Under the pieces are notes generated by a model that saw nothing but the letters and a program-made list of their open reading frames with translations, did not search any database and was not told the DNA's origin. The position numbers and the translations under genes were made by a program. Below, piece by piece: positions 21,242 through 64,000 of a DNA stretch of 64,000 nucleotides. Position 1 is the stretch's first letter, and each line of letters opens with the position of its first letter. Source of the stretch: Candidatus Nanoarchaeia archaeon (GTDB taxonomy: Archaea > Nanobdellota > Nanobdellia > Woesearchaeales > WJIZ01); contig JANQND010000022.1 of NCBI GenBank assembly GCA_028279765.1, positions 26,149 through 90,148 of the forward strand. The letters run 5' to 3'.

Positions 21242-21865
21242 CTAGGCATCCAATCCATCAAGAATGCAAAAATACCCCAAGGGCGTGTGCATTACTTCAC
21301 TATTCCAAGAATCGACTTCTTGTTTGGTATACCGTTTTACCCTTGTGAAATCCTTTATCTGAAACAAATTACCTTTAATTTGTTCAAGAATGAGTCCTAT
21401 TGACTTGAAATATGTATTAGCATGATGATCATCAAATTTCTCACCGTAAACTGAAAGAATGACTTTCCTTCCCAGCCGTTTCATTTGTTCAAGAGCTTGT
21501 TTCTCATTGGAAATATAGCCTAAAGTATTGTTTAAACAAATCACGTAGTCGAACCGCGGTAAATCCGCAGGATTTGAAATATCGCCAAGAATAAAGTCAG
21601 CTCGATAGCCTAACTGAGAAGCACTCTTCCTTGCTATTTCAATGAGAGAGGATTCAATTTCGATTCCTGTGAGCACAAGGTCAGGCCTTTTATCAAGAAG
21701 AGCAAATATCCTGCTGCCATCCATGCTTCCTACCTGAAGAACTGTAGAGGAGCGGGGAAGCTCTTTGCAGAGCAAATCAATTTCGTAGAGCCAGTTTTCT
21801 CTGTTCAGCCTTGGTAGCTTTTCAAGCACATCGCAGTTCACATACACCTCTTTTGCATCAGGCAT
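21242..21865 (-). CDS. class I SAM-dependent methyltransferase
   Basis: VLQVGSMDGSRIFAL (motif I-like) and DYVICLNNTL (motif II-like), 207 aa. First gene after the surface island on the same strand. Confidence 0.55.
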   Translation of the reverse strand: MPDAKEVYVNCDVLEKLPRLNRENWLYEIDLLCKELPRSSTVLQVGSMDGSRIFALLDKRPDLVLTGIEIESSLIEIARKSASQLGYRADFILGDISNPADLPRFDYVICLNNTLGYISNEKQALEQMKRLGRKVILSVYGEKFDDHHANTYFKSIGLILEQIKGNLFQIKDFTRVKRYTKQEVDSWNSEVMHTPLGYFCILDGLDA

Positions 21866-21916: not shown

Positions 21917-24900
21917 TCATCCCCTTCTTCTCACAATTAATGAGACGATCACCACCAAAGCAATGAACAGGAGCAATAACAGCACACCGCTTACCAGCTT
22001 GAACAAGTCCCCTTCTCGCTGTTCAATAGGCACAGGCTGTTCAATCTCTCTGGGGTTGGTAACCAGGTAACGGCAGCCTTCAATAACAAAGTTGATCAGG
22101 TTGCGTGACTCTTCAAGGTTACCCTGGTCAAAAGAAGCCTCTGCCTCAGAAAGAAGCTCCGTAAGCTCAAGGCACTCAGGGTTATTATTGAGTAAGTCCC
22201 GTACAAATTCTATTTGGTTCTCTTCAATCGAACGATTATTTTCTATCCTGGCGATTCCCGTAACCGAGATTATTGAAGAGTCAGTGTAATCCGGGTCTCG
22301 GGAAGTAGCATTCACAATTACATCGAATTCTCCAATGGTCCCCTGCCACTGCATAAAGAGCATAAGCTCTTCAGACTGCCCGGGCCCTAATGATGAAATA
22401 GAATTTTCAGAGAACCAGGTTTTGACCTTATCACTATTCGTAGTAGCCTGCAGGTCTATGCCTGTCAAAATGACTTCAGCATTATTCTTCAGCACAATTG
22501 GCGCAACTACCGTATCATTATCGAAAGTGGTTAGGTGTGCCGGTGAAATTAATTCAAGGTATCGTGGTTCAGTTACTGTTCTTGTTCGTGTCTTGAATGA
22601 TGTTTTTGTGGTGGAAACAAAAATGAACTCTACCGAAGAAGTTTGATCAGCCTGTTCAACGGTAACAGACAGGTTATTGCTGGTAGTGGTATCATGCGAA
22701 TCATTAGCAATAAAGTAAATAGTCTCTGTTCCGAACCAGTCCGTTGGTGCTTCAACTCCGACTACATGGGAATCATTGTTAAGGGTTATAATCACGTTAC
22801 TGTTCCCTGCTGCGGTGAACACTACCGTATCGTCAGTATCAAGGTCAGAGAAATAATCATCCAGGTCTATCCAGTTCTGATTCGTTGTGCCTTGGCTTAG
22901 GCTGAGGTCTGGAAGGATATAGTGTATTTTAATGCTGCTCACATTTGGAGTGATACTCGTATCATTGGTCTCAAGGATGATCTTATACTGGATGTAGGTT
23001 GCATTCTCAGACACGATTTGTTCTCCGGAAGAGTTCAGATAGCTTCTATTAAGTGCAACAGTGCTCCAGTTATTCCAGTTATTTCCGTTCTGGCTTGTTC
23101 TGGTTTGCATAGATGCATTTGTTCCGTTCGGGGTTATTGCCGACCAGCTGATGGTAGTGAATCCGATGGGGCTGTAGAAGCTATTAAAGAGCGGCCCAAT
23201 ATCGATTGCAGCGGAGACAAATTCTCCGTATGTTGCATACGATCCTGTTCCGCTTGCAAGCAAAATGCCGCCTGTAGTAGTGTTAGTACTATTGTCGGTT
23301 CCGGAGCTAAACTCAGAATGCTGATCATGATGAATAGTTCCGAACACAGGTGCCCTGTTAGTATTATTTACCGTGATGTTCCACACAAAGGTGTCGTTCA
23401 GTCCTCTGCCATCTGAAACGACCAAAGTAAGGTTGTGAGCTCCTGCTTCCAGGAAGCCAAGCTCGTAGGTATAGTTCGAGGTCTTACTATTAGTAAGCAG
23501 GGTTCCGTCTTTGTACCAGCTGGTATTTATGGAGTCTCCGTTGGCATCTGTGGAGGTATGGTTGAAGAGGATTGAAGTATTTTCTGCAAGAGTTATCGAA
23601 GTGGTATTCATTGGGAAATCCGATCGGTTAGCAAAGGCAAAGACAGTGGATGTTGATACAGGGGTCCCATACGGGCGGATTTGGGTAATATTAGGAGCAG
23701 TATTAAATGCGCGGATGGTCAGGTTGAACAGCTGCGTAGTCTCTTTTCCCATAGTGTCGTTAACAGTCAGGTTGATCACGTGGACTCCTATAAAGGTGGA
23801 ATTTGGAGTAAAATTAAAGTATCCCGTTGAGTCATTGATCACGAAAATGTCTGCACTGGCATTAGTCCTGAATCTAAGAAGAGACTGTGCATCCTCCTCA
23901 TCCGTAGCATTAGCATCATAGGAAAAGAAGGATCCCTCATCAGCAATAAGGTTTGGAATCGGAGTAAGTACAGGAGCATCATTGAAAAAGTCAATAGTAA
24001 GGTTTATGGTTTCGTTATCTGATACTCCTGCACTGTCTGTTACATTAAATGTGATGGAATAGTTTCCTACATCACTGGCATTAGGCGTGAAGGTAAAGAA
24101 TCCCGAACTGGCATTGATAACAAAGAAACTCGAGTTCGTTGCAAAAGTAAGCGTATCATTATCGGGTGTCAGGGTATCATTATCTGTTGCATTTATAGTT
24201 AGGTTAAAGGGAGTATCCTCTGTTAAGAGAAGATTTCCAATGAGGCCAAGAATAGGGGCATCATTAGTGTTATTCACCGTAAAGTTCAGAATTCTGGAAG
24301 TGTTATCGTAGCCATCACTAGCGGTAATATTGATCGAATGGTTCCCTACCTGAGCATTAGTGGGGGTAAAACTAACGAATCCCGAGGAATTTACAAGGAA
24401 CCAATTCCCTCCTCCAAGAACCTCAGCAGTGATAGTTACGATGTCTCCTGCGTCCGGATCAGTTGCATTAATCTGGCAGGTATAGGGTTGATCCTCAACA
24501 GCAGTAGCATTGTCTTGGCACCAGTAATGAATAGTTGGAAGCTGGTTAACATTGAGGACAGTAAAATTGACAATGATTTCATCATAGAGACCGTCACTAT
24601 CATTCACCGTGATGTTCATATGGAATACCCCTACATCATCATTGATAGGAGTGAAGTTAATCATTCCTGACGTGGCGTTGAGTATCAGGCGTCCCGAGAA
24701 GGTATTGTTGAGAGTAAAATAAAAGGCCTCTCCCAATGGGGTAAGGCTGTCTTCATCACTAACATTCTTAGTAAGATTATGGGAGAACAGCGAAGACTCA
24801 GGTGCAGTAAGGTTTCCAATATTAAGGGTAGGGTGCTCCGGTGTATTGTTCACTGTGAAGTTAACCAGCCGGGAGCTTGATAGCCCGTATTGGTCTGTCA

Positions 24901-27900
24901 CGGTAAAGTTCAGCGTATGGTTCCCAACTTCTGTATCATTAGCAACAAAGCTCACATTTCCACTTGTAGAGTTGACAATGAACCAGCTCGTATTAACACT
25001 AAAGGTGAAACTATCCCGTTCTAAATCTGTTGCGTTTACATGGCATCTATGTGTCTGGTTTTCCTGTATTGTGGTGTTATCGTCGCACACATAATCAAAA
25101 ACAGGGGCAGTATTATTTCTGATAGTAAGCACAAACGTGACATTCGAGCGGGTTGCGGACCGGTCAGTAACATTCATCAGGATAGTATAATTCCCCTTCT
25201 CTCCCTCTGCTGCAGTAAAGGAGATCAGTGATGCAGTCTCATTCACTTTTACTGCAGAAAAGAAAGTCGAATTGGTTCCAAAAGTCAGGTTTTCGCTATT
25301 GTTATGGAAACTATTGCCCGGCTGGTTAAAGTCATCATCAAATCCGGTAACATTGTACGAGTAGAGCAGGCCAACTATTGCTATCTGATTTGAAATATTG
25401 AAAAGGCCCGGGACATCATTAGTGTTATTGACCGTGAAGTTGAAGTATGTGTTTACACTAAACGATCCGTCAGATACTGTCAGATTAATAGTATGATTGC
25501 CAACGTGCTGGTTTTCTGCAGTAAAGTTTGCAAGGACTTCCTTGCTCGAGACGGTTGTAAGGTTAAACCAACTGACATTTGTACTGAAAGTAAGAGTATT
25601 GTTCTCCTGGTCTGTAGCGTTAATAGTACAGCTAAAGGCTATATCTTCTAGAGCAGATCGCGAACTGTCACACACGTAATCAAAAACAGGGGGGTTATTA
25701 ATATCATTAACAGTAAAGTTCACAAGCTTCCATCCTACACCGCTATTGCTATCGGTAGTCGAGATGTTAAGAGTATAATTTCCCGTATCATCGTTGACAG
25801 GTGTGAAATTAATAAGGCCCGTAGTCAGGTTCATGATCAAAGTCAAGCCGGTACAGTTGCCGGGATCATAAGGGCGGGTACAGGAGAGAATACTATAATT
25901 GAATATCGAAAGGCTGCTATCTTCCTCATCTGTTGCTGTAAGCTGGTAGGTATACAGGGTTTCTGTGGTTGCATCAGTAATGGTATTACCTGATGGCTGT
26001 GTAAATACAGGAACATCATTAACAGCAGTCATGCTGATGTCAAGGGTAGCTGAATCAGGAGCATTATCACTGTCTTTAACAGTAAGCTGAGGAGACCAGG
26101 GGCCCTCTATCGCGTGGTCGCTGGTAGTAACATAAACCGTCAGGTTTCCGTTTGTGAAATCAAACGACCAGCAATTGCTGCAGTCGCTATGGGAAGTAAG
26201 GTTTGATATGGAACCTGCAGTATAATCATAGCTAAGCACATCATTAATGTTAGAGTCATTGGCATATTGGCTGATATTATAAGAGCAGGGAATGTCTTCT
26301 ATGCAGGCAACGGAAGGAAGTTTTCCCTCTGTCTTATTGAATACCGGGGCGCTATTATTAATAATAATGCTATCAGTAGCATTAAGAGTAGGCATGGTCG
26401 CATTCGTGCAGAGCACATTGAAATAAGATACACCTTTGTACGGTATTTTTCTGCTGAAATTCCAGGGAACGGATCCTCCATGATAGCTCATGTTCTCGGT
26501 ATCCTGGAAAGATCCGGTAAAGTTGAAACTAATCTCGCAGGTTCCGTTTGCAATGGCAGTACTGTTTGTATAGTTTGCATAGAAAATAATCTCATTAGTG
26601 GAATACCAGGTGCCTGAGTCAGTCGAATCCCAGATGGAAATGTTTCCTTCAGTGGTGTTATAGCTTGCATAATTATTTGCGTATGCGGTTGTATTTCCAA
26701 AAGTGAATTGCTGATTATGAATTCCGGGAGTAAGAACCTGCACGGTCCAGTAACCGGTGTCATTACATTCATATCCTTCATATGATGCACTCTTTCCTCC
26801 ATCCCACACGTAAGAGAGAGTGTCATCTCCGCACATCAGCGATAAAGGAACCAGATCGTCAGGAAGCGCATTTCCATAATTGGTATCGGCTATCGCGCTT
26901 AAAGTAAGGTTTGCCCTTCCAAGGGTAGTGAACTCAACGGTCCAGTTTCCTCCCACGGTAGGGTAGCTCTGCACATTAAGAACAGTAATATCAACCTCAT
27001 ACGTCTGATTAGAAAGGTGAGGAACTATCCATTTGATAGAATCGATGAGCCCATTTGAGTTTTCATCGATTCCTTCAAAGGAAACCTGAAGGCGAGTATC
27101 ATTAATGATATGATAAAGCGTTATTGCATCAAGCGGCTTCTCATCAATCGCAGTGTATGCCAAAATATTTGTATAATGCACATCAGAGCTAATCACTATC
27201 TTCTTTCTTGAATCACTGATATTCTCCTCCTCGGAGAGTGGGGCCTCTGTGGTGTAGTGCACCTCTATTTCCTGGGCGCTCTCGTTAATAAGGAGCCGGG
27301 TCTCGGTCTCACTGCTAATAAGCTCTTCAGATTCAAGAGCTTTAACCAGCGCAGACTCTTCTATTTCCTCTATGGATGTGCTGACACTGTCCAGTGTTGT
27401 GTCAGGGTATAGTACTGGTTGAGCAGAAGAGCGGTGCGAGGAGAGTCCCTTTGAAGCTTTGCCGGAACTCTTTTTCGTCTCTGTCTTTTCTTTTTCTTCA
27501 AGCAAAGTAATTCTCTGATCCAGTTTTGAAATCTGAGCAGTAAGGATAGTAATCTGTTTCTGAGCAGATTCTTTCTTCTTTTGCCCGGTCTCCCCAATCA
27601 ATTGATCAGCAAGTATGTCCTGCTTTTGCTCATACATTACCTTCAGTTCCGAGAGGAGGGCAACATCTTCTGGATCATTCGTTTTTTGTTTCAGCTTTCT
27701 CTTGATCTGTTGATTGAGATGCTTGCTAGTAGTCTCCTGTGCAAATTCAGTAAAATTCTTCTGCACATCGTCAGTAATCACTGCAAGGTTAGATGGGGAA
27801 ACTTCCTGCTTTTGTCCGCCATTGATGGTATAAACAGAAACATTAAATGCCTCTGCTGGAAGCCCTACCTCGACATTATCTTCTGAATCAGTAGCTACTA

Positions 27901-30900
27901 GTGATCTCTTCCATAATACTGGTTTTCCTATTTCTACTGGTGATGCCGGTGCGAAAGAATCTGCTGAAGAGTCTGTTGAAAGTTCTTCAGATACTGCGCT
28001 TAAAATAGTAGCATCATCACTTCTGTTAGTATTGGGTATGGCGGCAGAATCCGAAACATTAGCTGCAACCAGGATTTCGACAATATCAGACACTGTGCTC
28101 TGCTTTGAGTCATTTACAATGAAGAATGTGTATGCAGACCCTTCAAATCCTGGATCTGCACTAATAGTCACTAAGCTATCTTCAATAGTGAGGGATACGC
28201 CCTGTGCATCATAAGCATGGTAATAGAGATCATCATTATCTGCGTCGGTAGCATAGAGCCCTAGATCGAAAGAATAGGAAGAATTTGCGTTCATCACAAT
28301 AGTTTCAATAGTAGATAATTGTGGAGCGCTGTTAGAGATAAGAGATGACCGCTTATACGTAGCATTAGAAAGCAGGATGCTTCCGGAAGTTACGTCAATC
28401 ATCAGTGTACCTGCTGAGAATGAAGGAAGAGAGCAGCTCTCTACACAAATATCTGTGAAAGGCACCATCTCAGGCTGGAAGATAGCACTCAGTCTCTCTG
28501 CTTCAGATTCGATAATCTCGGAGTATGGATTAAGCGGGTCCAGGCTATAGTTAGCACTGATAACCTTCGCGCTAACAACATTCTGTTCTCCTGCTCCCTC
28601 TTTTTCTCTGTTCAGATAAAACGTATCATCCCATTGGTCGCGCTCAGGTCTGAGCTCTACAAGGCCACAGCAGGAAGTGCTCCCATAGCAGCTATATTCA
28701 TTTCCCGAATCATGGCTAACAGTCCAGAGTGTACAGAGATTACCAACATCCCTATCCCAGCTGAACCGTGTATCGCTAACAGAGAAGTCAACTACACCCT
28801 GAGTTGATACTATTCCGTTATTGTCAGGGTCCCAGGGTGTCCCTCCGTGGTAGCGCAAGACCATATCAATAGCTTTCTTGTTCTCAGAGAAAGTAATATC
28901 CTGGCTTTCTCTTATGAGAGTGTAGTTCCGAGGAGCAACGAGAGAACTGTCAAGTACCAGGACTCTCTCTTGCGCACTGCCGGCGTAGACCCGTATCTTT
29001 GCATCCCTTGAGAGTGCTCCACTTAAAGTAAGCGAATCCAGCGAGCCGCTAATTCCTAAATCCACCTGGCCGGAATCGTCAAAAGTAGTGTCGAGCATCA
29101 GAGAGGTGTCTCCAAAGACAACACCGCCAGAGTCTTCAAAGATAACGCTGCCGGTGATTGCGGGATTCGTGAAGAGATACATACTGCCAAAAAGGCTGAT
29201 CATTAATAAGAGGACTAAAGCCGTCCTATTTCTGTTTCCCTTTGAGGGTTTCTTCTTTTTGGAGAGCGCTGTTTTCTGGCTCGCTTGCTTGCTGGATTTT
29301 TTATTTGCCTGATAAACAGAGTCAACTGCTACAGCAGAAGTTTTCTTCCTGATAGTAAACTCTATCAAAGAAATTGCTTCCTGAGCAACCTTCTTGAGGT
29401 CAGCAGCAGAAATAGCCTTAGCACTATATTCAATGTCAATAAGGCGATCAAAGAATGGCTCAACCCTATGCCTGACAAAATCTTCCTTTCGCTTCTCGCT
29501 TGATGTGGTTCCCTCATAAGCAAGAGTAAATTGGCGGTCAAATCGTTTCTTGTACCAACCTCGCATAAGAGCACTGAGTTGCTTAGTGAGAGTGTTTCTG
29601 TTCTCTTTAGGGGCTTTGAGTATGATATCATTCAGCCGGGCGATAACATCTTCTGAAGCACGAGTGATAAGAGTTCTGGATTTCCCGGATGGTTTCAGCA
29701 ACATATTCTTAAGCGCGCCTGGTGCATTCTTCATTCTATCGAAAAGGGCATGAACAAAGGAAATTCCATTCAGAGTTCTCAACAATTCCTTCAAATGAGA
29801 GTGCCTTGGTTTTTCTCCTTCCGGTTTCCTTTTGTGTTTCCTTCTTCTCAAGAAAAGGAAAAGAGCCAAGAGAATAATTAGTATAGCAAGGACAATCCGC
29901 CAAAGAGAAAGCCCCTCTTCACTCTGCGGAGTCAACTGCTCAACTTGTACTTGCTCAATGTATTCCCCAAGATTGCAGGGCCTGCAGGGTCCACCGCAAT
30001 CTATCCCCTCTTCGCACAGCTCACTTCCGTCATCCTGAGCATGACAGTTCAGCACAGAATCAAAGCAGGTCACACACTCATTAGGACAACCTGCACCGCA
30101 GTCAACGCCTTGCTCCCCGAAATTCTGAATACCGTCTGAGCAATGCTCAATAAACTCACAAGACCGGGTAAGGTTAGGCTGGAATTTAGTAGTCCCGCAT
30201 CGGTTAATATCAGTACAGTTTCGCGCAGCAGATCCACTGCCACAGGCAGACCATCGTGAACAATGCCACTTTTCCTCACAGCGAAGCAGCTTTGCGGCGC
30301 CACCGCCACCGCCGCCACCGCCACCACCGCCTCCGGCAGTAGAGGGAATAGTTACCGTTTCAGGAACATTGGTAACCGTGTAATTAGCACAGACGATTTT
30401 TGAAGAGTCAATGGTATCATTGGCCTGATAACAAACAGTCTCTACTCCGAACCAGTTTGCAGCAGAGCTCAGGGTAACAAAGTGGCTTGCCGGGCAATTA
30501 ATTCCAAGAGGATTGATATTATTATCAACCGTAACAGTTATTTGCGGAGATGCTGTTAAATGAGATACAGTGTACTGCAGGCAGTCGCCATCTGAATCAT
30601 TGAAGTAGCCATCAAGATTATAGGCGATGATTGTGGTATCTTCATTCCAGGAAGCATCCAGGCTATCAGGATTGCCAGTATACTCAGGAGCGGTATTATT
30701 TGCAACTACTGTTATATTGACCAATACCGACGTATGATCAGCTGTGCAATTGCTGGTGTCATTAACCGTGATATTCAGAATGTGGTCTCCGATATGCACA
30801 ATTGATGGGGTGATATTAAGTGCTCCGGTGGACGAATCAAACTGCATGAATGATTCAAAGGAGGAGAATGAGGTATAGTTTTCTTCAACTACAGAGAAAA

Positions 30901-31781: not shown

Positions 31782-31783
31782 TT

Positions 31784-31834: not shown

Positions 31835-31960
31835 TTCATAGCTATTTAAAGGAAATTTCTATCAGAGCCCCGCTCTGTGCACAAATAAAGAGATAAAAAG
31901 AGAAAAAAGATGTACAGAATAATTACCATATAGAAAAATAATAAGAAATAAAATAAATCC

Positions 31961-31999
<39 letters not shown>

Positions 32000-32000
32000 T

Positions 32001-60700: not shown

Positions 60701-63700
60701 TTTTCTGATAGAGAGTGCAAGGCCTTTATTAGTATCATAAGCTCCCCAGAGCACATTATAACTTTGATGGGCAGCAATGTTCACCCACCCAAAGAGAGAA
60801 AGTGAGTTTGCATTACCATAGATAGAAGTCCCCATATCTGCATAATCAGTATTTCCATCCATAGTAAGGCCATTTCCGAAATAGCCGGAGTTGGCAGTAG
60901 TCGCACTATCAAGGAGCGTACCGTTCTGCCTGCTATAGTATTCTATGATATGCGAGCCGTTCGCATCATCCATGCGCCACCACGCAACTAAGGAATCATC
61001 AAAGTCAATGACGGTTGAAATATTCCCCACATTATCAGCTGCAGAAACATTGACGATCAGAGTATTATCAGAGACTACTGATCCATCAGCAGGTGTTGCG
61101 GAAGTATAGTTCGCCTCAGGTGTAGTTAGGTCAATGCGCAGCGTCCTATTAGAGCTGGAGTTAACATTGTTCTGGATATCTTGAGCATAGACGGTATAAC
61201 TGTGAACTCCTTCTGAGAGGCTGGTAAAATTGACTTCTAGGTATTGTGTCGAAGTGTTTGCATACAGTGCCCTTACTTCTTCTTGGGTAAGTGAACGATT
61301 GAACACCAGAACATTATCAATAGTTCCGTTAAAGTGGTATGTTCCTCCATTGCTTCCAATAAGAAGTTGCTCTGGAGCGTTAAAGTCCGTATTATAGGCT
61401 CCCCCGGTCATGTTGTAGAACTGCCCATCCCAAAAACAGTGATAGCCAACGGTAGCATTCCCTAAAGGAGTGCATGCGAGGAAGTGCCACTTACCTACAT
61501 CTGCAGTAATTCCTGAAATATAAGTGGACAAAGAGCCCCAGTATAAGTAATTGTTAGCAGAATGGAAATAATAGGCCTGAGACTTTGTCCATCCGACATC
61601 ATTATCATAGATATATCCAATATATTGGTTCCTTCCAGCAGTAGAGGATAACTCGTTAAGCTTGTACCAGGCAACAAAAGTAGTAGTATCAGCTGCATCA
61701 TCTGATATTCCGCTAAATGAAGTATCCCTGATAATATCACCGGCTCCATCAAATTCGAATGCCGCACCTATTTTTCCATCACTCGTTTGGCTTGCGCCGT
61801 CAACTATGGTTAAATCGTTTCTTCCCATATAATCGGTTGGATTATTTGATCCATCAAGATCATCCATTCGATACCAGGAGACCAAAGAATCATCAAGATC
61901 CACGAATACGGAGAGATTTGATGTGTCGCTTGCAGTTACATTTAGTATAAACGAATTTTTGCTGCGATGTGAACCATCAGCAGGAGTAGGGTTAGCAACA
62001 GAAAATTGCTCAATAACACCGTCAGTCAAATTTGCAGTGAGTGTATTAACAATAGAAGACAAAGTAGGAGAGTAGAAGCTGTTTGATACATTCCCTGCAA
62101 AGAAAGTAAAGTTCAGGGTAATATTTGTCGATGCGGGGTCAATGGAGAATGTGTTCTGTCCTGTAAATACCTGATCAGTCGTATAGTACCAGCTCCCGGC
62201 ATAGTATCCAACTGTCAAATTGATAGAGCTGCCATACAATGCCTGATGGTCAGCTTTTACCACAACCTGGCTATTGCCAGAAGTAAAATTAAGGTTGGAG
62301 ATAATTTGCTCCCCACGCGGCTTGAAACGATCAGAGGCATTCAGATAGAGGCCCATCATTTGAGTTGCAGTGAGGCTGGTGTTAAACATCATAAGCTCAT
62401 CAAGGCTGCCATTGATAGTTCTTGCAGCCTGGGTAGTATCACTATTAGGATGGCCACCGATAGTCAGCACCCTATCCCTACTATTGGCAATTCCTCCTCC
62501 AAGATCATCCGAGCAAAGGAACGTTCCATTCATGTAGAGTGCATAGTCAGTAGAATTAATAGTGCCAGCCACATGAGTCCACTTATTAAGAGGAACGGCA
62601 ACACTACAGTCAATCAGGGTGTCAGTATAGCCATTTGCACTCAGCCATAAGTGATTAGAGCCTGCTTCAAGCCCCAGGTACCAATATACGGAGCCTTGTT
62701 GGAAAATATATTCTGTACCATCGGTATCATTTCGCAGATATATCCACGCGGAGAGCGTAATATTTTTGCCGGTGATATTAAAATCATCAGCATAGGCAAC
62801 TTCCAGGCGATCGCCGTTTACCAGATCCATTGCTCCTCCATACAATCCCGATGAAGTGTAGGAAGCGTTTTTTATCAGAGTCGCATCATGATTATTCTGT
62901 GAATAATCATAGGTAGTAACTGCGCTCGCATTCTCATCAAAAGGAAGATACAGAACTAAACGGTCGTAAGGAGCACTGTCAGAAATTTCCAGATGGGTAA
63001 AATTATTCTCGGCTGTAACGTTTATCAGGGTCGTATTCACAGAAACATCGCTAACAATCAGGGTTGGGTCAATAATATGGTCAAACTCCAGGTACGTTGA
63101 AGCATTGTCCAGATTAATAACCTGCAGATCAAATACATCCTGGCTGCCGTTCATTTCAGTCAGGTAAATAGTGTAGTAACTTTCATTTACTATAACAGGG
63201 AATTGTGCAATGAGCCGGGTATCGTTCTGTTCAAAGACCCTTACTGCTGTATTAAGTGATTCATTGTTACGCACATAAATCGTGATGTCCTTAGAGGGAG
63301 TAAGGTTTTCTTCAAACGTTACTCTGACATACTCCCCGTGGTAAACAGGTGTGCTCCAGTTGCCATCTTTTTGACGTACCTCAGGATAAATATCAGCAAT
63401 AAGACTTCTATTCTCTGCAAGGTGCTCTGCCTTAGTAATCAGAATAATTTCATAGGTCTGATTTGAAAGATGCGGGACAGTCCAGTAAATACGATCGATC
63501 AATGAATTATTGTTACGATCAATATAACTTACATTTTCAACGAGCTGCCGGGTATCATTCACAAGCCAGTATAATTTCACCGATTCTTTTCGTGAGTCGC
63601 GGATATCAGTAAACGACAAAATGTTAGTGTAGTGCACATCAGACTCGATAACAACCCTCTTTACTCCCTCTGTAACATTCTCCTCCTCCACACTGGGGCC

Positions 63701-64000
63701 TTCTGTGACGTAGGTAACTTCCAGTGAGGGTGCCGGCTCTTCAATGACTAAGGAAGCTCCTGCATTAACATCAGCAGATACAGCAGTGTCAGTGATAGCA
63801 CCTACCGCCGCATCCAACTCAGCTGAGAGCCTGTTTTCTTCAATGATCCCGGATGCAGTTCCCTGAATGGAGAGTGTTCGAACGGAAGTCGAGCCTATTC
63901 TTTGAGCAGAGGATTTTGCAATCGTGTTTTCAGTCCTTGAAATTTGTGTAGAGAGAGATCCGATAGCCTTTGCGATTTTTTCTTGCTCTTCACGACCATT
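36758..64000 (-). CDS. giant surface protein, 5'-partial (>=9080 aa in window; N-terminus lies beyond the window end)
   Basis: 27 kb uninterrupted minus-strand frame. The track start (TTG at 63817) is artificial: I translated the same frame from 63818 to 64000 and found no stop. Contents: SDVHYTNIL…VPHLSNQTYE module (about 63400–63650); Ig-like repeats; 16 LamG_3-like modules; 2 Gly-rich GGSGG…GGGGRI repeats; four parallel beta-helix blocks; FN3-like C-terminal domains. No C-terminal anchor. Very dense N-x-S/T sequons. Confidence 0.85.
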   Translation of the reverse strand, partial: NGREEQEKIAKAIGSLSTQISRTENTIAKSSAQRIGSTSVRTLSIQGTASGIIEENRLSAELDAAVGAITDTAVSADVNAGASLVIEEPAPSLEVTYVTEGPSVEEENVTEGVKRVVIESDVHYTNILSFTDIRDSRKESVKLYWLVNDTRQLVENVSYIDRNNNSLIDRIYWTVPHLSNQTYEIILITKAEHLAENRSLIADIYPEVRQKDGNWSTPVYHGEYVRVTFEENLTPSKDITIYVRNNESLNTAVRVFEQNDTRLIAQFPVIVNESYYTIYLTEMNGSQDVFDLQVINLDNASTYLEFDHIIDPTLIVSDVSVNTTLINVTAENNFTHLEISDSAPYDRLVLYLPFDENASAVTTYDYSQNNHDATLIKNASYTSSGLYGGAMDLVNGDRLEVAYADDFNITGKNITLSAWIYLRNDTDGTEYIFQQGSVYWYLGLEAGSNHLWLSANGYTDTLIDCSVAVPLNKWTHVAGTINSTDYALYMNGTFLCSDDLGGGIANSRDRVLTIGGHPNSDTTQAARTINGSLDELMMFNTSLTATQMMGLYLNASDRFKPRGEQIISNLNFTSGNSQVVVKADHQALYGSSINLTVGYYAGSWYYTTDQVFTGQNTFSIDPASTNITLNFTFFAGNVSNSFYSPTLSSIVNTLTANLTDGVIEQFSVANPTPADGSHRSKNSFILNVTASDTSNLSVFVDLDDSLVSWYRMDDLDGSNNPTDYMGRNDLTIVDGASQTSDGKIGAAFEFDGAGDIIRDTSFSGISDDAADTTTFVAWYKLNELSSTAGRNQYIGYIYDNDVGWTKSQAYYFHSANNYLYWGSLSTYISGITADVGKWHFLACTPLGNATVGYHCFWDGQFYNMTGGAYNTDFNAPEQLLIGSNGGTYHFNGTIDNVLVFNRSLTQEEVRALYANTSTQYLEVNFTSLSEGVHSYTVYAQDIQNNVNSSSNRTLRIDLTTPEANYTSATPADGSVVSDNTLIVNVSAADNVGNISTVIDFDDSLVAWWRMDDANGSHIIEYYSRQNGTLLDSATTANSGYFGNGLTMDGNTDYADMGTSIYGNANSLSLFGWVNIAAHQSYNVLWGAYDTNKGLALSIRKPSSSVYYSVHSGDGSTGFTPTSATITLNENEWHHVGFIFNGSDYLYYLDGVNFDSDVSTISSINDLTISGSFIGREGSITANRFNGTIDDLMIFNRSLSDEEVKALYANTSSGIVGANFSGLSDGVHTFRAYAQDLAGNVNATALRTVLVDNTNPTLSYDYPSATADSFYSDDSVLVNVSAADTSGNVSTFVDFDDSLVSWWRMDDNNGTHILDYTGKNNGTITGNAYEVENGYFGKAFSFDGNADYVDVGSDKSLNFTTQNFTVNVWAKSLVDNDWNYIYSSGRGGASASWWAIYQDSSGNPEAVFDDGTTNLVTAISSSLGNNWRMWTVRYFYGDNISLYIDGVYLGTVDISSQSGTFENDESGFIGRRSTDADSWNGSIDDLLIFNRTLTEAEILALYANTSSSYFETNFSNLAEGVHSFTAYSQDSAGNIFEGATRSVRIDQTKPEINFTSHTPDGTFAVSDSTLVVNVSSADDTGNVSTFIDFDGSLVSWWRMDDFNGSDVLDYFGNHNATLFGNPVQKGYGKLGKAFDFDGVDDYMEINEFGNNVSNLSATISFWFYANPRDDNEYPFSQGTSHDPSIYLTSANTIRIVGPGDSSPANSISNNVWTHYLVTWNTSNTVTYINGVEQSYIGRAAFSPSSDGFLGQYHGNSNRFNGSLDDVMIFNRSFSASEVQGLYANTSSRHLANNFTGLTDGTHTFRAYTQDQAGNVNSTALKSVTVDTTLPSISFVGPTPANGSSIAQTYITVNASASDALGNVSAFLDFEDSLVTWLRMDDNNGTHIFDYMGRNNGTLVNNVAVNNSGRFGKSIAFDGNADRVDIAHSQSLNFSATNFTWSAWIRPSVDNDIDRRLFGQGLSSILAYLDFNSLNQFEFRIYNGTFNNGLAVKSTSGIPIGKWTHVAATFNGTQLVVYTNGSNPSFSAIWSVNGAIGDTGGAYYLGGYPSTYDYNGSMDDVMFFNRTLSPSEIDALYANTSLKYLSANLTSLSSTSHSFNAYSQDTAGNVNSTDVRVVSTGVSFFVPTDASTGNYTIVGSVDGTLASGGTYSTDQFMNFSSENDGLRLQLFGFFSSQAVNLSRLIINASTDKTVVDTQSVTGIASNHTLFLRKHRDSAIIVCPDATKLTEINNSCPNKIIFAHSDLSTWKNGIKVSLENGYYKIENLTGSGVGEDNATPLIGFDRPLNNTYHNSNIIYANLSTNDSSNHYSFVDVDNDLLLWMRFDDVNGTQHPLDLSSYANNGTRLGHTNVTEDGKFGKGFAFDGADDAVQIRSDNSEPLICEGCNYTISAWVYANDSSSFDGIYGYYSSSQSIYHAYDLHLASGWVRCLIGNGSATDEIAFHAINANEWYHFVCTWNGTVHSAYLNGAFDSSEIPSLTGVYPKKGEVGTLRELIGTQYTTTVNEFNGTIDEILVFNRSLSASEIAALYNSSSSNYEANLTGFSDGQHNLTAHAVDTAGNRNSSSVSFYVDTVLPSISYVAPTLSNDSVQSESFIAVNATASDIYNVSVFIDFNDSLVGWWRMDDTDSSGNVIDYLAFNNGTSNGDAAQVEDGYLGKAFSFDGAGDYVRIIEDGRFDFERDPFTVSVWVKGGVPGAYTSIVDNKIAGTYNAGFNIYVNSGTDTVVFRVANGSNQVGTGNSNKVIMDNSWHHVVGVRNASGMYLYTDGALDRSTTSGADFNVSGPYDMYFGSYNTGAGFLTGSIDDVMLFNRSLTTNEVAALYANTSSRSVFGNFTSLTDGLYNFKAYAQDTAGNVNSVASRFVTIDTTAPNLTLSAPTPENGAWKPENHLFVNATAIDGKMNSSLFVDFDNSLVSWWRMDDYNGTAVIDYTSRNNGTIVADASQTTAGYLGKGFTFDGNGDYLDLGDDTDFEFAQNVDFTVSLWAKRSGNSTVTYPALVAKGAASAGQKGWNFRMTNTDDLHFQMGNGSERTGTTCSNAFLTLDQWHHALVVANRSGNAQIYLDGQTCGSALDIGTHYNVDLAENVNAIIGGWITSGENWNGTIDDVLIFNRTLTSNEVLALYTNTSTAYLGVNQTGLSERGYSFTVYGQDTAGNVVQSTSRSVVIDTSIPNISYVNPTPSNNEVLSGSSIHINVSVADNRSNVSGFIDFDNSLVSWWRFDDGNGTVDYLGRNNGTATGGVASTDAGYFGKAYQFDGVNDFLRTTPNHNESEMTVSFWFNLDDNTDNFDQFYQNSDSSYTVRTRTAGRFRIDYKNTTGAQNFDSATSLYSVGEWHHVAVTFKDNNVSLYVDSEIKSSVNAGDLVDGDSSQVDFGNLINGTIDDILLFNRSLSEDEIKGLYANESSAFIQRNFTSLSTGTHTFTSYVQDKAGNVNSTLTRSVILSGTNYWICNTKNYFTNASCWSLGSVPTAGQDILFNGSGTGDVNITNNTLPQNLASFTVDSSYGGGSLYFLPLFAQGNWTGRNDGTQLWNSTGSITINNGTLYVYGDYRLIDFSGIEGNITGDGHGQEWRSLNGNVTIGSSATLDGIGLGFPTDVGPSSSGEESGRYGGTVFPGSTNILYGNATAPTSLGSGGDNAAGSSGIALKALSGDIVVNGSITMYSSSGSNDRGSGGSIWLAAQTITGKGVLDASGGSSSNNGAAGGGGRIRLGYTQDMDLTGTISTASGTTGSTSGSRQGGVGTLTFTNNTWPGNWEVNGSIGLLGGNFGEGEVLNVKGDFVLGSEHNITIYGDCFGNSGIYLGFICYNTTADGRGLWLNASGNITVKASSKFDGRGLGFPTDVGPGSGGSGGSYGGNGGSGAGVLYGNMSRPLSLGSGGDTSNGGSGLKLQTDAGVIIVNGTVDMRSYDGNNDHGSGGSIWLEARTILGDGSLTASGGISTNNGDAGGGGRISLTSSGAINFSGVLDASGGTSTSATPSRSGSGGTIYLNATSSIVTSMNTTSTGYDGGNITFKDTFLNLSGLHNATGTNTDTTLALDYTDCSSDFSGATFSPDPTYITSCTYSIAVHSPLNNSDYNTSAILFNVSTSREASWCSFSLDSAPNTTMQQEGSYYFNFTNSSMAQGSHTVQFFCNDTGNNKQETGIYSFFIDSAFPTINFTFPTPANNSVAPAESIFVNVTATDSVNVSLFIDFDDSLVSWWRIDDNNGTHVFDYMGRNNGTLSSDITINSSGYFGKGALLDGNDDIINLSGMNNYPFASGEEFTLSIWAKAKNDPRRQVLFNAYNGDGVYCEIEADGNFNCRLADANDANESVVTTSGDYSDDNWHLFVATRNATNLTLYVDGKLAASGADPTNSLTEPLDLYVGYFAGIVATGDFNGTLDDVMIFNRSLSPNEIIALYANTSIKYAHYNFTNLSFGSHHVRAYAQDTFGNVNSTELREIAVREAFIVPSELNTSNYTITGSVNGVLTNGGRYNSDQYLNFSHSTYGLRLQLFGLFSQGQVNLSGLVINSSDEKTVVNIGGSSGIYSNHTLFMPNHHGSGVYVCPNATRLSDVNTSCVNKIDFSVAELGSWKSGIRVTLDGPHYRVDNLTGSGVGEENVSPSISFEPPTFSDKTIIADDWIFVNTSINDSSNVSAFIDFDGSLVGWWRMDDNNGTHVFDYLGKNNGTLAGNSTQTVSGYFGEGYNFDGNGDYVDLGTDRSLNLSGDATIAAWIKPNTTNNVRWVAMTGDNSGLIQFGLDIGRTANTAGIIWGTTGDWAINFSDATLARNAWNFVAVTRNGSSGAWTGKIYLNATLDKTFESASNPSSLVNGLIGAFRTSATNQFFNGTIDNVLFFNRTLSASEIKELHANSSTKYVSRNYTSLVQGKHSFTAYAQDTAGNINFTETRSITTDQSAPSISFVNPTPANASSLSDNSFIVNASSSDSNNISTFIDLDDSLVSWWRMDDRNSSHIYDYLGRNNGTIVNNTEFTEYGFLGDGALLNESNEHFIEVPDSASLDIDGTELTLTAWVKTADGQGAIMDKQSSSSSGYRLNIELNGLAEFGVYGGDEGCGFTEINSNSIINDSQWHHVVGTWDGTNTRIYIDGVFEVSGSESCIATNNLAVDIGVGDDTAYLDATLDDLMIFNRSLSAEEVEALYANQSSRVLDINYSSLSEGHHYYKAYSQDKAGNINVTETRFATTDKTAPTMSYVSPTPSDGQILTNNSIYVNITSTDFHNISTFINFDDSLVSWWRMDDENGTHVFDYTGRNNGTVVGNATVNTSGYLGKGFNFDGDNDQITLGNVNFSSFEPEGTVSAWVNNHELDTYGGILTKSLGGIATTIQLDFGHYTSNSYRLFIGNGTNYASVSVSDTTTNAWELVTATWNSSDICIYLNGVFADCNTNTYGFIDYGNDLIISSMFGSSATRAFNGTLDDIMIFNRSLSAEEILALYANTSTTYLERNFTQLSDGNYSFSAYSQDTFGNVQALSSRLVHVFSQYPPIFFIDPTPVHHSLQNASPIINVSVTSPRNYYSFIDFNRSLVLWMDMDQIVGSQSNPSLVIDRSTYGNNGTPEDDAQQTDLGYFSKGFVFDGAGSGDYIEVPYDSSLSPLNEISFGMWVKLDDLANNMDFINFGSTQGGTYFLRSETDGDIVTQIRGPSTGANSCTATGQAEAGVWHHYFVTFNGSHMRTFRDGVEICGLNTTFTIYQPGSGYLSIGSHPTPTNLVDGTLDEVLIFDRGLSEEEVQAIYLNTGPLNYSANITGLRAGNYSVKAYAKDVYGYINSTEERIFTLGDFYAPEITFVDPSPANDQFIINTSAILNATIIDDIPPTYAFFDDNLTFWMTMDDINESGEPLDISGFGDNGSKQGDASQTADGIFGRAFTFDGTGDYINDTDQSQIRALSLWIYPDATTGTILSTDDKLGDSYNLQFVSGGILKSNQSDDAGSSLYVNSSNSIPTGQWTHVAIVSDPTADWTQMYIDGTLTQNITESGSQQSVAFTTIGAQHGAAPYDDFFDGRIDEILAFDRKLNETEIQALYNASKYHLERELLGLVEKDYNYTVHAVDATGNRDSAQLNFTVDTTRPTLEFVGATPPNGSGLSQNFIPINITANDTNTLMAFIDFNNDLSLWLRMDVNGSGDFQDYSSYNHTVTKYGSAVQVDDGYFGKGVRFSDGPSTDYLQVEDHDSLDLYDNWTVSWWAYPYQKSDGTATSYVFSKTPTTADTTGAYQLGIYTHHQSYSGDRAMIYGSNNGATACTITTTQFDMDEWMHGAMTFISGNVTHYVNGKEIGECGDVTWLVPNTQPLLIGRRGGATDAYLNATLDDLMIFNRTLTPVEIEMLYANQSTHYFARNFTDLTNGAYSFRAHTQDRSGFVNSTELREVSLETGTNVTICRPLKDPNTEYTLQNDLTTSGTCLTIYADNVTVNGNGYSITGDGSGLDYGINNTGSRMNLTVKNFNRIINLSRGVYFERVNNSLILNNSILISTGSDLSGLYLKDSNYNLVENNTITRNSSLSTTTHGIYINTTVLSSYNNLTNNTIILDGKGVGSGYPVYFRTAGGVNRYNRILDNLLNSSTGTFAFGVTFETGSALSSNNTVANNTIQLSSSVSYGVYLDGLAGSSIDSNEIIKNHIAVDGTSSAFGVYLFNPSGTSMNNTLIDSNSIYAEDASAYSIVLATTGSASIDSTTMQHNYLESAGSNAQGILFNNIGASQAYSTVYNNSINISSSNSVGTLNTFGIYMLETKQSGNVSLNTINITAPSTLTASIYSQNSNAGNVFVENEMYNSTYGIYLTNASSHNFTGGTFKHMEKNAVYLGSSSQQNFFKGLDIQDSDLSGFNITNSTNTIIINNTFSSTPLDYYVEDSEITEYQFNGSSLEIVNTHGKIRWINDSLYAFGDNLSNVISISSNSAFVNSTKDPGLNTSANITLNNLGSIVQSILVDFEDDGSFDLCPSGICQNLSFASSILLFNVTHFTTYKSSSVSFSNDWINITGTETCSSLYSTVNNDDVVSSCSSSYTDCIVAHLNISVTGTFNVLDCEVRMNATGDQNVGIYVQDSASMSVNQSLINATNETYEFIFQVNTSNFEFRDSTLEEAYGGMQILGNDTLVENATIRKNIDYGIHVQGYRTLINNSKITENTEGSGYGVYLNNVSASQVLNTNISANTYGAYLTASSSNLFENVESSGQSTGFYPTSSSRHNNYTDIISSSNTYAFFIADSTHNTLTNFTADYNTYSSGAISLFIGANYNKFYNITVRHNTGPGVYVGAFTSALNNTFDGIVALNNSVGLVLDFGSNNSIVNANLSNNTYNLEIGLNYFGGSGNTHRLITVDHSYAVYINESLSDYTYSPQTTPNAGFISCTECNNITIVDLNLSHSNSPGIYLYRSNASVISNVSVNENEVGVSLYTVYNTSVKNLTSIGSSTGIHLSNSQYNNISASTFEGGSIGILVGSSSENTIGNLSVTRASSHGVSLLTSTRNTFYNLTSNQNGGSGFSVGSNSHYTNFSSITANLNTDYGIYLNSVENSHVDGATLYSNNKSGLYVNLADYTTARNIDLWNCTSTSEGCLYLSRSENSFFEGITINNSQNYGLYIYGHSGVSVSSHNLFKDIIMNNTGAQDVYVHTQDGSSEATNNTFLNVSYADIDFSSTGTEEIIRKWYVDVLVNQTNTSVVPSANVSVSNVSSIVYLNTNTSLLGLVSFNVTEYYQTDDSAYSWYNNHTFTSIKSPLETTSVIANITSNRVDPNFVTITMESTVACGDTLDIPGKNYTLLRNISGAGNCLLIAADNISLSGNGFTITGNGSGTAINTTGTRHNLTIRDIPLISGFERGINLVNVRDSFIVNNTLDSSVLNPAYGIYTQDSTGLLIANNTIRWNSTESSSNSYGIYLSSVNNASSNNIVNNNTLSIYSASQSGYGIYVRNDDLETSGNSITDNTVDVLASSSAYGIHLFSSRDPAQNNIIQSNSIVLNSTSSGSAYGVYFLGNGTEPLGTTISLNSIVDNTVEASSTGSAYGIYLVQNFGSLIQDNTVYNNTLNITSSASSSDLSVFGIAQNSTTGTNISLNTINLTAPNSLSAGVYLVSGSNSNTLSQNTFTHSDYGLYLSSSSNNNFIREAILAPSRSGVLLTNASTSNRFTELTITNAGNNGFNVTNSNYTSIINNSVTGTPLDFIFLKSEISEFQLNGSSLSYGTDDAVVRWINTSLYLFGTNFTRLVQLTPNSIFVNTSMDPNFNTSANLTIYNLEIASPKASVDFNDDGIFADCSSVQCGGLVYSGGTLRFNVSSFTTYKASEATDLFACTILNEENTTYTLQTNITTTDTCFTIEANNVTIDFNGHAITGDGDALEYGVLSDGLNLSTLKDGRIHNFSHGIYFLNNSQSTIQNMTSTRNSNSGIYLQLSTDTFINNSNSSDNLYGIYLTENSDNVTVRSSSLHSDTLYGVYIDSSSALSLVNNSFESNGVGILLSSSPNASVHDNVFTTMGSAAITLSNTNYTSLSNNTILSSSAGINSSFSSHNTYERNTLQSNVLGFNSDQSEHFNVFTKNTFINCTSTSSSCISLIGSSNSIEGGVVNISSYHLLSVIGNDNNITDVIASNASIHGILIGNGSNATRLENLSITQTVKEGINVSSGTQHALINNTFSDVLRDYAVSDGSIASYSFVNNSLRISDDSNGILLFLNQSIVASGENLSNMISLSSNHIFVNSSRDRGLNTSANVTLYGITVASPTIQVDSDDDGIYTTCSAPLCHNLSFTASTLVFNVSHFTSYKVDIRAPSWNANQTNAPGKISEQKWFFVNWSDDSGLGNYIFSWNGTNGTWQNDTAVALTGLINQSNVTKTINLSRGNTIGWRIYVSDSAGVTNVTDIFTFEVENTPPEPVNLSAPLNLSTITDRYTFFNWTTGYDADGDTVNYTIVIEESPDCTGNGLECVGVNTVANPTSPSYTSTRLLGIDTWYNWSVRAFDGYNYSTWSGGFNFTLEGVISIDLNCVGGCSSTAEFGTVFHNTEYNTTSNSPQPLTFENDGNVFVDTLINATPLWDTVALNTVYFQFAAGNSSESSSFNWSNSTQLFTPLSSAQKYVARSLNFSNASDLAEAELSVIVPSGESAGDKNTLITIEARYYNAS
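45300..62300 (-). repeat. array of 16 divergent LamG/concanavalin-A-like lectin modules (period about 890 nt) inside the giant ORF
   Basis: The SLVSWWRMDD-type motif recurs on the minus strand at about 61870, 60970, 60100, 59210, 58370, 57040, 56150, 55250, 54350, 51400, 50060, 49190, 48310, 47450, 46550 and 45710. Each is followed by FDG…DY, a conserved Trp, and DDxMIFNRSLSxxE…LYAN. A conserved nucleotide patch catacgccaccagga recurs. The array is interrupted at 51400–54350 by the Gly-rich insert. Confidence 0.75.

Follow-up and report, generated by a model that had tools for sequence, protein, structure and literature searches.

A conserved pairing of a tail domain with membrane proteins in a DPANN surface-protein island resembles bacterial WxL clusters

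Introduction

It has long been an open question how DPANN episymbionts attach to other cells. Annotations usually call their giant surface proteins "hypothetical adhesins", and the mode in which they are mounted on the cell is not explained. Here, we describe a surface-protein island on contig JANQND010000022.1 of a Candidatus Nanoarchaeia archaeon. The window, i.e., the whole stretch of DNA that was analyzed, comprises 64,000 nt and was studied with a list of its open reading frames (ORFs) and their translations; ORF coordinates are window positions. From position 21242 to the window edge all genes lie on the minus strand, in the order giant ORF1, membrane protein B (MemB), a regulator with two helix-turn-helix (HTH) repeats, a small G/N/T-rich protein (GNT), membrane protein A (MemA), a Cys-rich lipoprotein-like protein, an AbrB-like protein, giant ORF2 and a methyltransferase. 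An initial annotation made from the sequence alone had given this strand and gene order, and the ORF listing is identical to it.

The left flank of the island encodes aIF5B, Trm1, RNA 3'-phosphate cyclase, CTP-dependent riboflavin kinase, DUF460, NMD3 and PUA proteins, and the named closest homologs of the island genes are assigned to "Candidatus Woesearchaeota", "Nanoarchaeota" and "Nanoarchaeia", with a few from Aenigmatarchaeota. Thus, the host is a DPANN archaeon, as had been guessed before, and these data support the island as a genuine surface-protein locus of a Woesearchaeota/Nanoarchaeota-type member of this group.

A Tail Domain Shared by ORF1 and GNT

ORF1 ends in a C-terminal domain (CTD) that recurs in GNT. 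Alignment of the GNT family with the family of ORF1 C-termini by hhalign gave a probability of 96.8% (E = 3e-10) over 145 columns. Furthermore, the C-termini of giant proteins in other Woesearchaeota match both the ORF1 C-terminus and GNT in Blast and hidden Markov model searches. On this profile evidence, GNT represents the ORF1 tail domain as a protein of its own, with ~30 inserted residues. The initial annotation correctly listed a small G/N/T-rich secreted protein but missed its identity with the C-terminal domain of the giant ORF.

The domain is a true tail, ending a median of 3 (maximum 26) residues before the C-terminus in 101 related ORFs. Searched against 1.84 billion cluster representatives, the GNT/CTD profile retrieved 3,180 at E ≤ 1e-3 and 2,497 at E ≤ 1e-10. 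The 150 best matches are mostly free-standing proteins of 180–240 aa, and the longer ones (448, 465, 727 and 2,608 aa) carry the domain at the extreme C-terminus. GNT, the ORF1 CTD and the other 21 members of the alignment have no match in Pfam at E ≤ 10, the WxL model PF13731 included, and none in NCBIfam. The CTD family of more than 3,000 cluster representatives is therefore without a Pfam or NCBIfam model, and its profile provides a search handle that finds cargo proteins in any DPANN genome.

GNT proteins begin with M-x-E-(I/V)-S-N-x-x-L, continue into a hydrophobic helix and then show a conserved β-strand-like motif, G-x-V-N-V-T-I-N. GNT of the window carries 10 N-X-S/T sequons. Its AlphaFold2 model is poor, with a predicted local distance difference test (pLDDT) score of 57, and the fold matches are only suggestive.

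The Membrane Partners

MemA and MemB are 28% identical over their full length, in agreement with the paralogy proposed earlier. MemA is moreover 41% identical to P0002, the protein that comes after the GNT homolog in the related locus L002. A search with the single MemA sequence found itself and one relative only, and a family profile was needed for wider retrieval. This profile retrieves 108 proteins of ~400 aa (Mem), all of them "hypothetical" and every named one from DPANN. Mem proteins measure 371–450 aa. The AlphaFold2 model of MemB, based on an alignment of 34 sequences, has a pLDDT of 87.7 and consists of a cleavable-looking signal peptide, three β-sandwich domains and a C-terminal transmembrane (TM) helix. 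The sole segment of low confidence in the ectodomain is a loop in domain 1 (residues ~121–140). Neither MemA nor MemB contains an N-X-S/T sequon, with 1–2 expected from composition.

Bacterial WxLIP proteins are defined by a signal peptide, DUF916 (PGBD), DUF3324 (HBD) and a C-terminal TM helix within about 337–365 aa (Hassan & Williamson definition). The Pfam model WxLIP_HBD (DUF3324) matches 18 of the 34 Mem members in domain 2 or 3 (best E = 1.9e-8; two above the gathering threshold), and WxLIP_PGBD (DUF916) weakly matches domain 1 in three (E ≥ 0.007). CARDB matches 16 of the same 34. Foldseek searches with Mem also return 9i1y_A and 9i25_C, "WxLIP bound to long WxL". Among PDB sequences, the Mem profile found CARDB-like chains only (E ~0.02), and the Mem member with the best WxLIP_HBD score had no match. 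We regard the Mem proteins as remote relatives, or at least the closest structural analogs, of bacterial WxLIP. In a clustering of the family, Mem genes that come after large proteins form one group and those paired with small proteins are heterogeneous; a clean split into A and B paralogs was not retained, since the clustering supports it only in part.

Conservation of the Pairing

A metagenome scan with the Mem profile yielded 371 stretches, of which 80 loci were fetched and all their ORFs searched locally with hmmsearch. As these loci were retrieved via Mem, the following counts describe how regularly Mem has a partner and not whether every CTD protein has a Mem. In the window, the start of MemB overlaps the stop of ORF1 by 11–29 nt, and MemA follows GNT after a 15-nt gap. 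Across the related loci, 54 of 61 large CTD-terminated ORFs have a Mem gene next on the same strand within 700 nt, often with a 4-nt overlap or with a gap of ~450–500 nt that holds a ~160-aa gene. Of 28 small GNT genes, 20 have a Mem gene next, at most 150 nt away. Conversely, a CTD or GNT ORF precedes the Mem gene in 65 of the 79 cases with enough upstream DNA. The same adjacency is seen in consecutive NCBI locus tags (KAK00_10035, the 2,608-aa CTD protein; KAK00_10040, a Mem gene), and the pair recurs across Woesearchaeota, Nanoarchaeota and Aenigmatarchaeota. The passenger domains of the cargo proteins vary, with LamG in 12 loci and β-helices in some. The pairing of tail domain and Mem is the organizing principle of the cluster, which the initial annotation had missed.

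The near-complete Ca. Nanoarchaeia genome GCA_028714095.1 encodes, in this order, a large protein, a 167-aa protein, Mem, a 69-aa protein, GNT, Mem, a 137-aa protein and an ORF2-like Big_9 protein. L005, L086 and many metagenome loci share the core succession of large protein, Mem, small protein, Mem and ORF2-like Big_9 protein. L002 has a GNT-MemA-lipoprotein-ORF2 module without the ORF1/MemB module, and in L019 housekeeping genes lie between the two cassettes; the island is therefore modular. The synteny comparison proposed with the initial annotation thus makes one coherent locus a reasonable view of the core, whose order recurs elsewhere, but not of the methyltransferase, the AbrB-like gene or the lipoprotein, which the cluster does not conserve.

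Three small genes recur in canonical clusters but are missing from the window. The first encodes a ~160-aa TM protein and lies between the genes of the large protein and MemB (e.g., L086 9505-10008), the second encodes a ~70–85-aa TM protein that shares the GNT N-terminus and lies ahead of GNT (e.g., L086 11239-11448), and the third, after MemA, encodes a ~137-aa protein with a single immunoglobulin-like (Ig), PapD/MSP-like domain (e.g., L086 13200-13613). L002 offers further examples of such accessory genes (6470-6730 and 8746-9159). Other surface proteins are encoded near the cassettes, as in L035 (2925-7124 and 11761-14079) with a YadA-head-repeat protein and a 772-aa β-helix protein, so that the cassette clusters appear to be general surface-protein islands. 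A conserved cytoplasmic N-terminal motif, MVYKKYIKRGGKKFGPYY...YLG, stands before the TM helix in the large CTD proteins of L019, L059, L063, L085 and L017.

The Giant Proteins

The frame of ORF1 has no in-frame stop as far as base 64000 (>27 kb), and the protein is truncated at its N-terminus; its residues are numbered from the window edge. The giant open frame had been recognized before, but the earlier figure of at least 9,019 aa counts only from the first TTG and the true bound is at least 9,080 aa. At this length, ORF1 would rank among the longest known archaeal proteins. A jackhmmer search of ORF1 with one unit delineates 17 units of ~300 aa, each combining an Ig-like domain with a LamG/concanavalin-A-like lectin domain, in an array that holds three inserts (aa 2124-2276, 3451-4104 and 4447-4597). 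The Pfam search yielded 17 Laminin_G_3 domains (E = 3e-211 in one half of ORF1 and 1e-117 in the other) as well as Big_13 Ig domains, so that ORF1 has the multiple Laminin_G_3 domains of a secreted LamG-repeat adhesin. The array is followed by a right-handed parallel β-helix (NosD, 6e-62; Beta_helix, 8e-49; nine stretches each) and an FN3-like domain before the CTD. Hence, Pfam confirms the LamG, Ig and β-helix domains named in the initial annotation but not FN3, which is undetected in the window copy and weak in a homolog (fn3, E = 0.0034) that also carries Ig_Rha78A_N (2e-9). No catalytic families of glycoside hydrolases, lyases or proteases were detected in the domain content of the island.

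Close to the N-terminal end of its visible part, ORF1 carries a module, HYTNIL, that is common to ORF2 (~aa 1370-1470) and to large CTD proteins elsewhere. With phmmer it was found in 9–10 related loci, at residues ~230–550 of N-terminally complete proteins and right after their N-terminal TM helix. The visible part of ORF1 has no hydrophobic segment above the TM threshold. It contains 455 N-X-S/T sequons. The density of ~5 per 100 aa in ORF1, ORF2 and GNT is 2.3–3 times the expectation from composition and compares with ~0.5 per 100 aa in cytoplasmic neighbors. This supports these three as extracellular N-glycoproteins, and the heavy glycosylation suggested earlier is plausible from sequon enrichment. 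A diversity-generating retroelement was also considered and rejected: no reverse transcriptase was matched among the window ORFs scanned with Pfam, and the DNA repeats are diverged domain repeats only.

ORF2 has TM segments at residues 62-80, 572-590, 799-817 and 3211-3229. A cytoplasmic N-terminus and TM1 are followed by an ectodomain of ~490 aa with a Gly12 linker and Cys-rich knots, TM2, a basic cytoplasmic loop of ~200 aa, TM3, a second ectodomain of ~2,400 aa with HYTNIL, Big_9, He_PIG and cadherin-like repeats, and the C-terminal TM4 (Pfam: Big_9, 1.5e-43; He_PIG; Cadherin_5). The homolog in L002 is 39% identical over 1,163 aa and has the same layout. ORF2-like Big_9 proteins also come after the second Mem gene in L035, L038, L068 and L086. 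In these four loci the counterpart of ORF2 aa 1-820 is a separate gene for 657–836 aa, and the fused form is common to the window and L002 (10833-14234). ORF2 looks like a fusion in which an ~800-aa protein, made up of a cytosolic N-terminus and an Ig-like, Cys-rich ectodomain between two TM helices, is joined to a large ectodomain protein beginning at TM3.

Organization of the Island and Its Flanks

The positions of genes and features are collected in Table 1. The tiny or overlapping junctions described in the initial annotation hold for most neighbors, which overlap (the AbrB-like gene with the start of ORF2 by 17 nt) or are separated by gaps of 15–70 nt, but not for the 219-nt spacer between the lipoprotein and the AbrB-like gene. 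As the organism is archaeal, the intergenic DNA was read by eye for promoter elements in place of a scan for bacterial promoters and terminators. The spacer holds an (AAAG)9.5 repeat, a T-rich stretch and a TATA-like box, TTTATATA, which lies ~24 nt upstream of the AbrB-like ATG between copies of the palindromic octamer TAACGTTA. This octamer occurs five times in the window, with 0.59 expected, and three of the five copies fall within 51 bp. The triplet of TAACGTTA together with TTTATATA looks like the operator and internal promoter of an AbrB-like/ORF2 unit. A second TATA-like element is found upstream of GNT. Given the spacer and the TATA-like elements, the island is likely split into at least two transcription units, and island-wide co-transcription should not be assumed. 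The (AAAG)9.5 tract is a perfect tetranucleotide repeat directly downstream of the lipoprotein stop and ~150 nt upstream of the TATA-like box; changes in its length could cause phase variation. Scans of the window for tRNA and Rfam families gave no match.

Table 1. Genes and features of the island and its left flank (positions in the 64,000-nt window).
Feature	Position	Strand	Description
Giant ORF1	36758 to beyond 64000	minus	At least 9,080 aa; large "cargo" protein of cassette 1; N-terminus past window edge
HYTNIL module of ORF1	63401-63733	minus	N-proximal
LamG array of ORF1	44906-63076		aa 309-6365
β-helix of ORF1	38081-44833 (approximate)		~aa 6390-8640
FN3-like domain of ORF1	about 37226-37560		Precedes the CTD
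CTD of ORF1	36761-37225	minus	~150 aa, last residues of ORF1
MemB	35545-36786	minus	407-413 aa; signal peptide, three β-sandwich domains, C-terminal TM helix
2xHTH regulator	34944-35597	minus	Two Sigma70_r4-like HTH repeats
GNT	34213-34890	minus	225 aa; N-terminal hydrophobic helix and stand-alone CTD domain; small partner, cassette 2
MemA	32896-34197	minus	433 aa; MemB paralog
Cys-rich lipoprotein-like protein	32001-32825	minus	Lipobox-like LYGC; Cys 6.9%
Spacer, lipoprotein/AbrB-like gene	31782-32000		219 nt
(AAAG)9.5 repeat	31961-31998		Perfect tetranucleotide repeat
Promoter-like region, AbrB-like/ORF2 unit	31784-31834		TATA-like TTTATATA and three TAACGTTA palindromes
AbrB/SpoVT-type small DNA-binding protein	31602-31781	minus	59 aa
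Giant ORF2	21917-31618	minus	3233 aa; four TM segments
Class I S-adenosylmethionine methyltransferase	21242-21865	minus	Pfam Methyltransf_31/25
Lysine-rich ORF	20540-21238	plus	232 aa; between MoxR operon and island
MoxR operon	17308-20492	minus	MoxR AAA+ ATPase, DUF58, VWA/BatA-type membrane protein
1,289-aa ORF	7414-11283		Lipoprotein-like signal (…LALMLAAC)
Riboflavin cluster	2112-3960		CTP-dependent riboflavin kinase fused to HTH; two DMRL-synthase-fold ORFs

The two DNA-binding proteins named in the initial annotation were both recovered by domain searches. The double-HTH regulator matches Sigma70_r4_2 (1.3e-10) and HTH_38 in Pfam, and its L005 homolog matches both of its halves, which points to an internal duplication; with homologs in eight related loci, often upstream of the large protein, it is a recurrent accessory. 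The AbrB-like protein matches MazE_antitoxin in Pfam (1.9e-5) and the AbrB family in NCBIfam (3.4e-5). It has no homolog in 85 related loci and is a lineage-specific accessory; in L002 two small, possibly ribbon-helix-helix-type, proteins replace it. The lipoprotein (Pfam: Dicty_CTDC twice, 8.8e-12; DUF4352, weak) is found among the 85 loci only in L002 (49% identity) and in L001, whose contig is 100% identical to the window, and is therefore a lineage-specific accessory as well. Pfam confirms the annotated methyltransferase and places it in class I, but it is syntenic nowhere and without a homolog among the 85 loci. It was rejected as part of the system and is probably a mere neighbor of the island.

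Just to the left of the island lies the MoxR operon, separated from it by a plus-strand lysine-rich ORF. Further to the left, the 1,289-aa ORF with a lipoprotein-like signal has no match in Pfam or NCBIfam, and the riboflavin cluster is somewhat unexpected in a reduced DPANN genome.

A Possible Archaeal Counterpart of WxL Clusters

Among Lactobacillales and Bacillales, WxL clusters encode a small secreted protein of ~180 aa that consists of the WxL domain only (PMC1534035, PMC9772566, PMC10599100) and a large protein whose own, shorter WxL domain forms the extreme C-terminus, behind Ig, FN3 and β-helix domains (PMC10599100, PMC9772566). According to AlphaFold predictions, a disordered hairpin of the partner protein WxLIP completes the WxL β-sandwich (PMC10599100, PMC9772566), and a structure of the WxLIP/WxL complex has been deposited (PDB 9i25). 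WxL is stated to be exclusively bacterial (PMC9772566), and we found no such system described in the literature on WxL in DPANN or on DUF3324 in archaea.

We lean, by a modest degree, toward the view that the island core consists of two paralogous cassettes of a tail domain and a membrane partner which are the archaeal counterpart of these clusters, with Mem holding the CTD by β-strand complementation. Cassette 1 would comprise ORF1, a very large, N-glycosylated and Sec-exported protein ending in a β-rich CTD of ~150 aa, followed by MemB; cassette 2 would comprise GNT, ~200 aa with little beyond the CTD domain, followed by MemA. The Mem ectodomain might capture the CTD/GNT domain such that a strand or hairpin of Mem completes the β-sandwich, and the disordered loop in domain 1 of MemB (residues ~123–138) is a candidate for the inserting element. 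CTD and Mem would then do in trans what the C-terminal TM helix of ORF2 does in cis. An additional C-terminal anchor in trans is suggested because ORF1 homologs possess an N-terminal cytosolic motif and TM helix, and the ectodomain of ORF2 is flanked by TM helices at both ends. The variable middle (LamG, β-helix, Ig) might be presented outward to bind glycans of a partner cell or a polymer, for which the 17 LamG units make glycan binding plausible. Physical binding of Mem to CTD, strand insertion and an outward adhesive role are inferred.

Several observations weigh against this view. At the sequence level, PF13731 stays unmatched, no conserved dual Trp-x-Leu was seen in the alignments, and CTD/GNT has no match among PDB chains in a set that includes 9i25; on these grounds the CTD is not detectably a WxL domain. 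The WxLIP_HBD matches lie mostly just under the Pfam threshold and fall on a generic Ig/CARDB-like fold, which CARDB itself recognizes in nearly as many members. DUF916/PGBD, the domain that binds WxL in bacteria, is only weakly matched in Mem. Peptidoglycan, the ligand ascribed to WxL, does not occur in this archaeal group. Two dedicated Mem paralogs stand here against one WxLIP in the commonest WxL cluster. It is not obvious that a second anchor is required, given that complete homologs of the large protein come with a TM helix at the N-terminus, and the pairing statistics were drawn from Mem-retrieved loci.

A giant LamG protein as such is a known kind in DPANN genomes; new are the cassette of tail domain and Mem and its resemblance to WxL/WxLIP. 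We put forward more tentatively, and on balance doubt somewhat, a broader proposal: that DPANN possess a widespread, unnamed strand-complementation system of C-terminal tails and WxLIP-like partners that mounts giant host-contact proteins and possibly polymerizes into a fiber. If true, a mechanism of surface display so far believed to exist in Gram-positive bacteria only would have an archaeal branch, and DPANN episymbionts would use it as the molecular handle on their largest adhesins. The comparison links an orphan archaeal family to WxL/WxLIP, for which a complex structure exists (9i25), and the Mem ectodomain and the CTD provide a concrete pair of small soluble domains for testing how giant proteins are mounted.

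Alternative Explanations

The cassettes might instead build a donor-strand-exchange fiber with a giant tip adhesin, in which GNT polymerizes via an N-terminal donor strand and the CTD of ORF1 is an acceptor-only, pilin-like domain. ORF1 would be akin to FimH or to the LamG-bearing TafC, with TasA, archaeal bundling pili, "threads" and haloarchaeal tat-fimbriae as analogs, and the Mem proteins would act as chaperone-like partners or as a fiber-terminating membrane anchor as proposed for TafF. The frequent duplication of GNT genes in related loci, the ~70–85-aa protein with a GNT-like N-terminus ahead of GNT, which recalls major and minor subunits, and the β-strand-like motif after the GNT helix fit such a fiber, and the tat-fimbriae model likewise combines a LamG protein at the tip with TasA-like subunits, an anchor in the membrane and a regulator (PMC11821415). 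We nevertheless consider it unlikely. Pfam scans of the window ORFs and of a sample of two loci (L019, L035), which leave most loci unscanned, found no SipW/TafD signal peptidase, usher or type IV pilus ATPase, and the precomputed Pfam labels of L086 include no SipW/TafD-type signal peptidase. No Pfam family, including Peptidase_M73 (TasA), matched GNT or its family, and two Mem paralogs, each beside one partner, suit 1:1 complexes better than a polymer. A type IV pilus was rejected, as were chaperone-usher and S-layer readings, since defining components are missing. Archaeal class III signal peptides, processed by PibD/EppA, carry a [KR]-G cleavage motif. The GNT N-termini lack it, and the scanned loci (window, L019, L035, L086) contain no ATPase or platform gene.

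Less probable still is that no specific complex exists, the Mem proteins being independent envelope proteins of the CARDB/COG1470 or SlaB-like type that are merely co-regulated and the CTD a generic stalk or spacer. CARDB matches are about as frequent as those to WxLIP_HBD (16 vs. 18 of 34 members), and a SlaB-like role in anchoring the S-layer has been proposed for multi-Ig DPANN surface proteins with a C-terminal TM helix (bioRxiv 10.1101/2023.10.27.564410). Yet the adjacency is tight and polar, always CTD before Mem and often with stop and start overlapping by 4 nt, in dozens of divergent loci. Moreover, the tail domain is confined to the extreme C-terminus, the Mem genes after large proteins form one cluster, and both Mem proteins lack sequons (although composition predicts only 1–2), whereas SlaB-like anchors are described as glycosylated. 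Finally, the frames of 27 kb and 9.7 kb could be assembly chimeras in which repeated modules of several genomes or genes were joined. The contig is metagenome-assembled, the ORF1 protein is highly modular, and ORF1 is the extreme member of its family, far exceeding every sampled homolog (complete ones 428–2,500 aa, truncated ones up to at least 3,331 aa). We deem such an artifact highly improbable. The 27 kb are free of in-frame stops, and repeats within the island DNA do not exceed 80% identity or 220 bp in length, and none is exact over 40 nt or more, so that assemblers see unique sequence throughout; with repeats this old and diverged and GC content even along the sequence, repeat-driven mis-assembly is unlikely. 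Both termini of ORF1 are as in single-gene homologs, with HYTNIL near the N-terminus and the FN3-like domain and CTD followed by MemB at the other end. The four-TM layout of ORF2 recurs in the L002 homolog, which stems from another metagenome, and an independent Logan contig reproduces the GNT-MemA-lipoprotein stretch with its junctions.

Comparison With Known Surface Systems

Giant archaeal surface proteins such as the nanohaloarchaeal SPEARE proteins and halomucin are extremely long, modular and glycosylation-rich, contain many lectin, Ig and β-helix domains, and are assumed to contact hosts or polymers. ORF1 differs from them in having no protease or nuclease domains, and to our knowledge they have not been described with a conserved C-terminal domain and a WxLIP-like membrane partner. 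The SlaA/SlaB S-layer shares with the cassettes a large secreted glycoprotein gene beside the gene for an anchor with signal peptide, β-sandwiches and C-terminal TM helix. In contrast to SlaB, Mem has neither sequons nor a coiled-coil stalk, and cargo proteins of 430 to >9,000 aa do not resemble lattice subunits. SlaB gave no structural or sequence match among the top Mem matches.

Tat-fimbriae (TafA/C/E/F; PMC11821415), Pyrobaculum bundling pili (7ueg), Sulfolobus threads (7pnb, PMC9715654) and TasA are built from small β-sandwich subunits, to which GNT may be likened. Further parallels with fibers of the tat-fimbriae type are a LamG-bearing adhesin that shares a subunit-like domain, an Ig-like membrane protein proposed as anchor and a small transcription regulator in the cluster. 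Unlike there, no DUF5305 protein or Tat motifs were seen here and sequence similarity is lacking; the subunit-like domain is N-terminal in TafC and C-terminal in ORF1.

The comparison with WxL clusters goes further, in spite of clear differences. The DPANN system is archaeal, without peptidoglycan and with all named homologs in DPANN, and the island shows no LPXTG protein, a frequent partner in WxL clusters. No sequence similarity to WxL could be detected in its tail domain, which lacks the dual W-x-L motif conserved in both the small and the large WxL protein. Mem has three Ig-like domains instead of two, the HBD-like domain apparently being duplicated, and each partner has one dedicated Mem paralog (two in total). 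The large protein is 10–30 times as long as a typical large WxL protein and, by homology, has an N-terminal TM helix of its own. What the two systems share is a three-part logic: a small protein consisting of the domain only, a large protein with the same domain at its C-terminus, and a clustered partner of ~350–400 aa with signal peptide, Ig-like domains and C-terminal TM helix. The island displays this architecture for the CTD/GNT domain in place of WxL. In both, the domain of the small protein is larger than the C-terminal copy, which is preceded in the large protein by strings of Ig, FN3, β-helix and lectin domains. The only disordered loop of the Mem ectodomain lies in domain 1, as in WxLIP, and in both systems the genes lie close together and frequently have an HTH regulator in the vicinity.

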